The position numbers were made by a program, and so were the translations under genes. A stretch of DNA of 27,060 nt from a virus (taxonomy: Duplodnaviria > Heunggongvirae > Uroviricota > Caudoviricetes), in IMG/VR virus record IMGVR_UViG_2681813321_000031, one strand, 5' to 3'. A model generated the notes under the pieces. It saw only the letters and a program-made list of their open reading frames with translations, had not been told where the DNA came from and ran no database searches. Positions 23,714 through 24,200 of this stretch are shown here, one piece after another (the first letter of the stretch is position 1; each line of letters starts with the position of its first letter).

Positions 23714-24200
23714 TCTGGACGGGTAAGCGCTGGGCGTACCTCGCCGTTGTTCTCGACCTGTTCGCAAGAAAACCAGTGGGCTGGGCCATGTCGTTCTCGC
23801 CGGACAGCAGGCTCACCATGAAAGCGCTGGAAATGGCATGGGAAACCCGTGGTAAACCCGGCGGGGTGATGTTCCACAGCGATCAGGGTAGTCATTATAC
23901 GAGCAGGCAGTTCCGGCAGTTATTGTGGCGATACCAGATCACGCAGAGTATGAGCCGGCGCGGAAACTGCTGGGATAACAGCCCAATGGAACGCTTCTTC
24001 AGGAGTCTGAAGAACGAATGGATGCCGGTGGTGGGTTACGTAAGCTTCAGCGAGGCAGCTCACGCCATAACGGACTATATCGTTGGATATTACAGCGCAC
24101 TAAGACCGCACGAATATAATGGTGGGTTACCCCCAAACGAATCGGAAAATCGATACTGGAAAAACTCTAACGCGGTGGCCAGTTTTTGTTGACCACTTCA
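23714..24200 (+). mobile_element. IS3-family (IS911-like) insertion sequence, right-hand portion with terminal inverted repeat
   Basis: Terminal sequence ...ggtggccagtttttgttgaccacttCA (24174-24200), reverse complement TGAAGTGGTCAACAAAAACTGGCCACC, has the TG...CA termini of IS3-family IRs; resemblance to IS911 is from memory. Confidence 0.7.
23716..24192 (+). pseudogene. IS3-family transposase OrfB, C-terminal fragment (interrupted by the intron)
   Basis: ...[20 protein letters not shown]...[10 protein letters not shown]...[22 protein letters not shown]... carries the DDE catalytic region of IS3-family OrfB (IS911-like); no N-terminal part or OrfA in the window. Confidence 0.8.

Follow-up and report, generated by a model that had tools for sequence, protein, structure and literature searches.

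IS911 3' end with a nested E.c.I4 group II intron at a prophage repeat junction in a draft scaffold

The IS911 3' exon

The window analyzed here, a 27,060-nt stretch of DNA, corresponds to positions 154-27213 of contig CYBF01000044.1 (45,267 nt) in GCA_001285025.1, a gapped draft scaffold that runs another 18 kb past the window (27214-45267). The host region is a lambdoid prophage integrated at mlrA. Toward the right end of the window, prophage sequence is followed by a run of 21 N, the 3' part of a group II intron, and the 3' end of an insertion sequence (IS), after which the same order of features recurs (Table 1).

Table 1. Features at the IS911-prophage junction and in the repeated part of the window
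Feature	Position	Strand	Evidence or remark
171-aa prophage gene, predicted PD-(D/E)xK fold, intact	20941-21456	+	native IS-junction site 21332/21333, inside codon 131
Scaffold gap, 21 N	22551-22571	.	between prophage sequence (…ATGAATAAA) and intron interior; unverified join
E.c.I4 group II intron, nt 1129-2270 only	22572-23713	+	1142/1142 identity to published E.c.I4-2b
LtrA C-terminal 349 codons, RT domains 4-7 and maturase X domain	22574-23620, stop 23621-23623	+	
Ribozyme domains V/VI	23627-23713	+	Rfam RF00029
IS911 3' exon	23714-24200	+	100% identity, exact exon boundaries
OrfB C-terminal 158 codons	23716-24189, stop 24190-24192	+	translation
Second DDE Asp, in HSDQGS	23875-23892	+	motif in translation
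DDE Glu, in PMERFF	23983-24000	+	motif in translation
IS911 right inverted repeat	24165-24200	-	comparison with the inverted repeat of a full-length copy
Second copy of prophage 21333-22550	24201-25418	+	joined directly to IS911 tip, 0 mismatches
3' remnant of PD-(D/E)xK-like gene, codons 132-171 and stop	24202-24324	+	then 252-aa and DUF4222 genes
Second gap copy, 21 N	25419-25439	.	same length and context as 22551-22571
Second intron 3' part	25440-26581	+	
Second IS911 3' exon	26582-27060	+	window stops 8 nt short of the IS tip

The initial annotation had described 23714-24200 as part of an IS3-family, IS911-like element whose transposase gene is split by an intron, and had proposed comparing its OrfB and inverted repeat (IR) with reference elements. 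That comparison narrowed the assignment to IS911 itself: without a mismatch over 487 nt (487/487), the segment is identical to many RefSeq IS911 copies in complete E. coli genomes, which are annotated as 'IS3-like element IS911 family transposase', and it corresponds to IS911 nt ~764-1250, the last 487 nt of the element. Of the 5,426 complete E. coli genomes, 4,033 have a match to 23714-24200, at a median of 2 places per genome. The exon boundaries were defined by aligning an uninterrupted IS911 orfB (L003, plasmid pMAR2) with an intron-carrying copy (L002). The alignment breaks off at L002 position 2372 and restarts at 4643, which corresponds to a 2,270-nt insert, and the 3' exon that follows is exactly 487 nt long and extends to the IS end. 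This exon begins at 23714 and the right IR finishes at 24200, both exactly where the annotation had placed them.

The translated part of OrfB matched Pfam rve (E 1.6e-24, profile positions 19-102 of 102) and the NCBIfam IS3 family transposase model NF033516 (179.2 bits versus a cutoff of 160, positions 227-368 of 369). As had been annotated, nothing of the IS is present beyond the C-terminal DDE part of OrfB and the right IR: the second Asp and the Glu were found, and the first DDE Asp (DVTYI) belongs to exon 1, which is absent from the window. Read on the minus strand, the right IR is TGAAGTGGTCAACAAAAACTGGCCACCGCGTTAGAG, with its tip at 24200 (plus-strand tip …CCACTTCA). Compared with the left IR of L002, a full-length copy, it agrees at 24 of 36 positions, and the outermost 8 nt (TGAAGTGG) are the same in both; the IRs of IS911 are imperfect terminal repeats that end in 5'-TG...CA-3'. 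The segment thus shares with IS911 the OrfB C-terminus with its rve/DDE core and the right IR with its TG...CA tip, but just ~39% of the element lies within the window. On the strength of this identity, 23714-24200 is the end of IS911 itself, a common E. coli insertion sequence.

The nested E.c.I4 intron and its hosts

The bases preceding the exon are identical at 1142 of 1142 positions to those of NC_009801:4848623-4850893 (fetched as L015), the coordinates given for E.c.I4-2b in a supplementary table (file 4) of PMC3522654. E.c.I4 has been assigned to ORF class A and lacks an endonuclease domain (Toro and co-workers, PMC3552965). It is ~99% identical to S.f.I1. The intron ORF at 22574-23623 matched RVT_1 (E 5.3e-21) and GIIM (E 4.7e-11); its score against TIGR04416 (198 bits) fell under the cutoff of 300 because the N-terminal ~152 LtrA residues are missing. 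Domains V/VI scored 64.9 bits against RF00029 (gathering score 40) and end one base ahead of the IS911 exon, with the intron terminus ...CTAC, so that the 3' splice junction of E.c.I4 falls exactly at 23713/23714. The ribozyme in the window is incomplete, since E.c.I4 nt 1-1128 (the 5' GUGYG, domains I-III, and the start of domain IV) are absent from it. The insertion point in IS911 orfB and the orientation relative to the transposase are the same as in published E.c.I4; in contrast to the published intron, the first ~152 LtrA codons are missing here, and a 21-N gap beside phage DNA stands in their place. By its bases, 22572-23713 is E.c.I4, and at least as assembled it is a fragment. The split of the transposase gene noted at the outset is thereby accounted for by a group II intron at its canonical homing site in orfB. 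The same intron is truncated independently by IS26 ends (…TTTGCAACAGTGCC) in two other fetched loci, L006 and L014 (about 9957-9990 in each), which cut it off 22 nt and 32 nt ahead of where the intron sequence of the window starts. A masked adaptor and a hidden IS26 were considered as conceivable origins of the 21-N run.

E.c.I4 has been reported to home into specific positions of the transposase genes of IS629, IS911, ISEc16, and ISEc31, and a chimeric IS629/IS911 host of E.c.I4 has been listed in SHI-1 of E. coli 55989 (Table S2; PMC3522654). Among the loci that we fetched, the same intron occupied the homologous site in at least 3 IS3-family hosts, and its 3' end was contiguous with the IS911 3' exon in ~968 of the 5,426 complete genomes. 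IS911 with a nested E.c.I4 is a documented and widespread arrangement in E. coli, and the copy in the window is no new variant of it.

When exon 1 and exon 2 were joined, an in-frame read-through (...CGDVTYIWTGKRW...) was obtained, so that splicing would mend the transposase message. Most likely, a copy of IS911 was invaded by mobile E.c.I4 at the standard homing site in orfB, which lies within the Ile codon of the DVTYI|W motif, the motif that contains the first catalytic Asp. The target of E.c.I4 retrohoming is a conserved stretch in the transposase genes of IS3-family elements, which the intron enters in the sense orientation. Once spliced, the intron RNA would presumably leave orfB in frame again; because orfB would be rejoined in this way, the IS is split in the DNA but need not be dead.

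The element upstream of the intron may be of another kind. In L005 (8863-11618) and L013 (8863-11618), an IS629-like 5' exon stands on one side of E.c.I4 and an IS911 3' exon on the other, and these chimeric hosts presumably arose via recombination between intron copies in different IS elements. What the window has in common with them is E.c.I4 running into the same IS911 3' exon; their 5' exon is IS629-like, whereas the window is without a 5' exon and is compatible with either a pure IS911 or a chimera. Because an IS629-like exon precedes the same intron and exon in these two loci, IS911 is not assumable upstream of the intron in the window, and the earlier attribution of the missing left part to IS911 does not follow.

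The prophage junction and the missing 5' parts

At its right tip (24200), the IS adjoins a copy of the prophage sequence from 21333 onward (joint ...GTTGACCACTTCA to TGGGAATAAGC), which confirms that it abuts the interior of the gene that had been labeled PD-(D/E)xK-like. The region of the native site is 100% identical to the mlrA prophage in O55:H7 strain RM12579 and in other strains. The 171-aa protein encoded there had no Pfam or NCBIfam family match. Residues D40, E53, and K55 were invariant in 28 homologues. An AF2 model (pLDDT 84) had its best PDB match in 3dnx (E 3.9e-6, TM 0.59/0.67), which is SPO1766, a protein of unknown function; Hjc, Bax1, the R2 nuclease domain, and restriction enzymes came next. 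The product of 20941-21456 is accordingly predicted by modeling to have a PD-(D/E)xK fold, and the label appears fair. The family is widespread in Enterobacterales prophages, where its genes lie between ead/Ea22-like genes and xis/int.

No complete E. coli genome out of 5,426 contained the IS-phage junction, and its exact 36-mer was found in no genome, viral, or metagenome contig. Its absence from all other sequences searched suggests a transposition junction peculiar to this strain. The joint falls on the last base of the IR, and there is no overlap at it that would be able to merge contigs. Because it sits on precisely the outermost base of the IS, we infer that the junction was most likely made by transposase and is genuine in at least some DNA molecules of the isolate. 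Insertion targeted to an IR-like sequence was considered and rejected, as the best 20-nt IR match near 21333 was at chance level (560 and 934 of 1,000 shuffles). A search for a hybrid outward promoter across the IS tip found none.

On the other side, the 5' 763 nt of IS911 (left IR, orfA, the site of the programmed -1 frameshift that links orfA with orfB, and first Asp) are absent within the window, in agreement with the annotated lack of OrfA, the frameshift window, and the left IR. A search of the window for the 5' parts of IS911 and of the intron returned nothing but a 28-nt chance match. The annotation had suggested that the missing left part might lie in the gap. The sequence needed ahead of the intron amounts to 1,891 nt, which cannot fit a gap of 21 N if the length of the N-run has meaning. 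Neither the window nor the collections searched yielded a left IS911 junction; had the element inserted in the simple way, its left joint would be predicted to read ...CCATTTACTGG followed by TGAAGTGGCAC, with TGG duplicated. IS3-family elements such as IS911 duplicate 3-4 bp of their target.

Before the gap, the prophage sequence stops just 9 nt after the start of a small ORF that precedes xis; natively, a 44-aa ORF, xis, int, and mlrA would come next. A gapped pattern search of genome and metagenome contigs for the joint from phage through gap to intron returned nothing. Related prophages do not commonly break at 22550, as they would at a mosaic boundary, and the native downstream phage sequence had no similarity of more than 10 nt to the 5' parts of the IS or the intron. 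The link from 22550 to the intron interior therefore lacks an obvious repeat explanation, and it could be a real novel joint.

The 2,868-bp repeat and its interpretation

That the IS marks a repeat junction was also confirmed: 21333-24192 equals 24201-27060 with 0 mismatches, the 21-N run included. Because the 2,868-bp copies are byte-identical down to the N-run, the second copy is not independent evidence of the arrangement. Over at least 1,142 nt the intron does not vary from one host IS to another, and IS911 is multi-copy, so short reads cannot thread through them. False joins can arise from greedy scaffolding and gap filling as practised when such drafts were made (PMC5320598).

The scaffold also carries a second tandem repeat, of 7.5 kb (2200-9761 versus 9751-17318, 98% identical), which contains prophage replication and immunity genes. 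Its 2200-6862 segment is 100% identical to the partner, and the differences cluster at 6863-7700. At its junction, an 11-nt overlap (ccactggcaaa) truncates an HTH gene and creates a 119-aa chimeric ORF, for which there is one public record only. This junction is absent from all complete E. coli genomes, and those with the prophage have a single copy of the region. The alleles around the C4 and isrK RNAs differ between the copies: the two C4 regions are just ~75% alike, as would be expected of two different immunity alleles and not of a recent duplication. The 7.5-kb repeat probably consists of two related prophages threaded together by the scaffolder. C4 antisense RNA and isrK sRNA were located at 7258-7345, 7367-7443, 14812-14899, and 14924-15000 (minus strand), upstream of Rha/ASH-type genes in each copy of the repeat. 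In addition, 21-nt direct repeats (ATCTCTGCCCGTAACTCATCC and variants) at 4853-4907 and 12404-12458, at the replication-gene boundary, look like origin iterons.

A joint explanation, to which we assign a probability of about 0.78, combines an IS911 3' exon invaded by E.c.I4, a real IS-phage junction, and an artefactual loop. A short-read scaffolder may have looped through repeated sequence and so produced the tandem layout around the IS junction. We lean toward the view that the tandem arrangement is such a scaffolding loop and not the real layout. Under these circumstances, the earlier proposal of a probable disruption of the phage gene in the actual genome is unsupported, since an intact copy is present in the same scaffold, the repeat copy is not independent, and the draft is gapped and contains another unnatural repeat.

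The alternative that fares best, though we regard it as unlikely, would make the 2,868-bp unit real: a duplication or amplification in tandem within the prophage, or else a circle that has been excised. It would have originated when the IS911 right end was joined to 21333, by one-ended transposition or attack on the sister chromatid, together with an illegitimate joint between 22550 and intron nt ~1129, and each repeat junction would then bear a 5'-truncated intron and an IS911 right end. A single clonal genome contains, directly or by implication, all four junction types that the order P1-P2-fragment-P2-P3 requires, including the native 21332/21333; known prophage mosaicism does not explain the break at 22550; and the small N-run suggests that both edges lay inside one library insert. 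Against it stand the byte-identity of the copies, the joint across the 21-N gap, which was never sequenced, and the occurrence of such a junction in no collection searched, while the other tandem repeat of the scaffold is itself unseen in nature and has diverged alleles that probably belong to two prophages. IS-bounded tandem duplications and amplifications carry a single IS copy per duplication joint. The window is like them in having an IS end at the joint between direct chromosomal copies; it differs in that the other side of the joint is a truncated intron over a gap rather than the other IS end, and in that the duplication exists only as assembled.

Somewhat less probable still is that IS911 at the phage gene is real but free of the intron, and that the assembler attached the intron via the collapsed 487-nt repeat. 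With the IS911 3' part in 4,033 of 5,426 genomes (median 2 places) and the intron joined to it in ~968, mixed occupancy is common, and 487 nt is close to the insert size of a short-read library. The window nevertheless runs unbroken, without N, from the intron through the IS tip into the phage, and its 3' exon is 100% identical to those of intron-carrying copies (L001). We consider it very improbable that the IS911-phage junction is an assembly chimera and that the prophage gene is without an IS: the scaffold demonstrably has at least one other junction unseen in nature, but a chimera formed at random within the element would land on the exact terminal IR base in only about 1 of 1,000 cases, and no overlap was usable by a gap-closer.

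These results carry a lesson about data quality, namely that identical intron copies (at least 1.1 kb), IS copies, and near-identical prophages defeat the resolution of repeats by short reads; gene disruption, tandem duplication, and truncation of the intron require read-level or long-read confirmation before they are concluded from such a scaffold. The biological weight of the locus is small, as IS911 and E.c.I4 are already known as a nested mobile element, and the sole new fact is where the IS inserted in this strain, namely in a prophage gene whose function is unknown. If the amplification or circle were real, it would mean that the right end of IS911 acted alone on a nearby prophage target and left half an intron at each joint.
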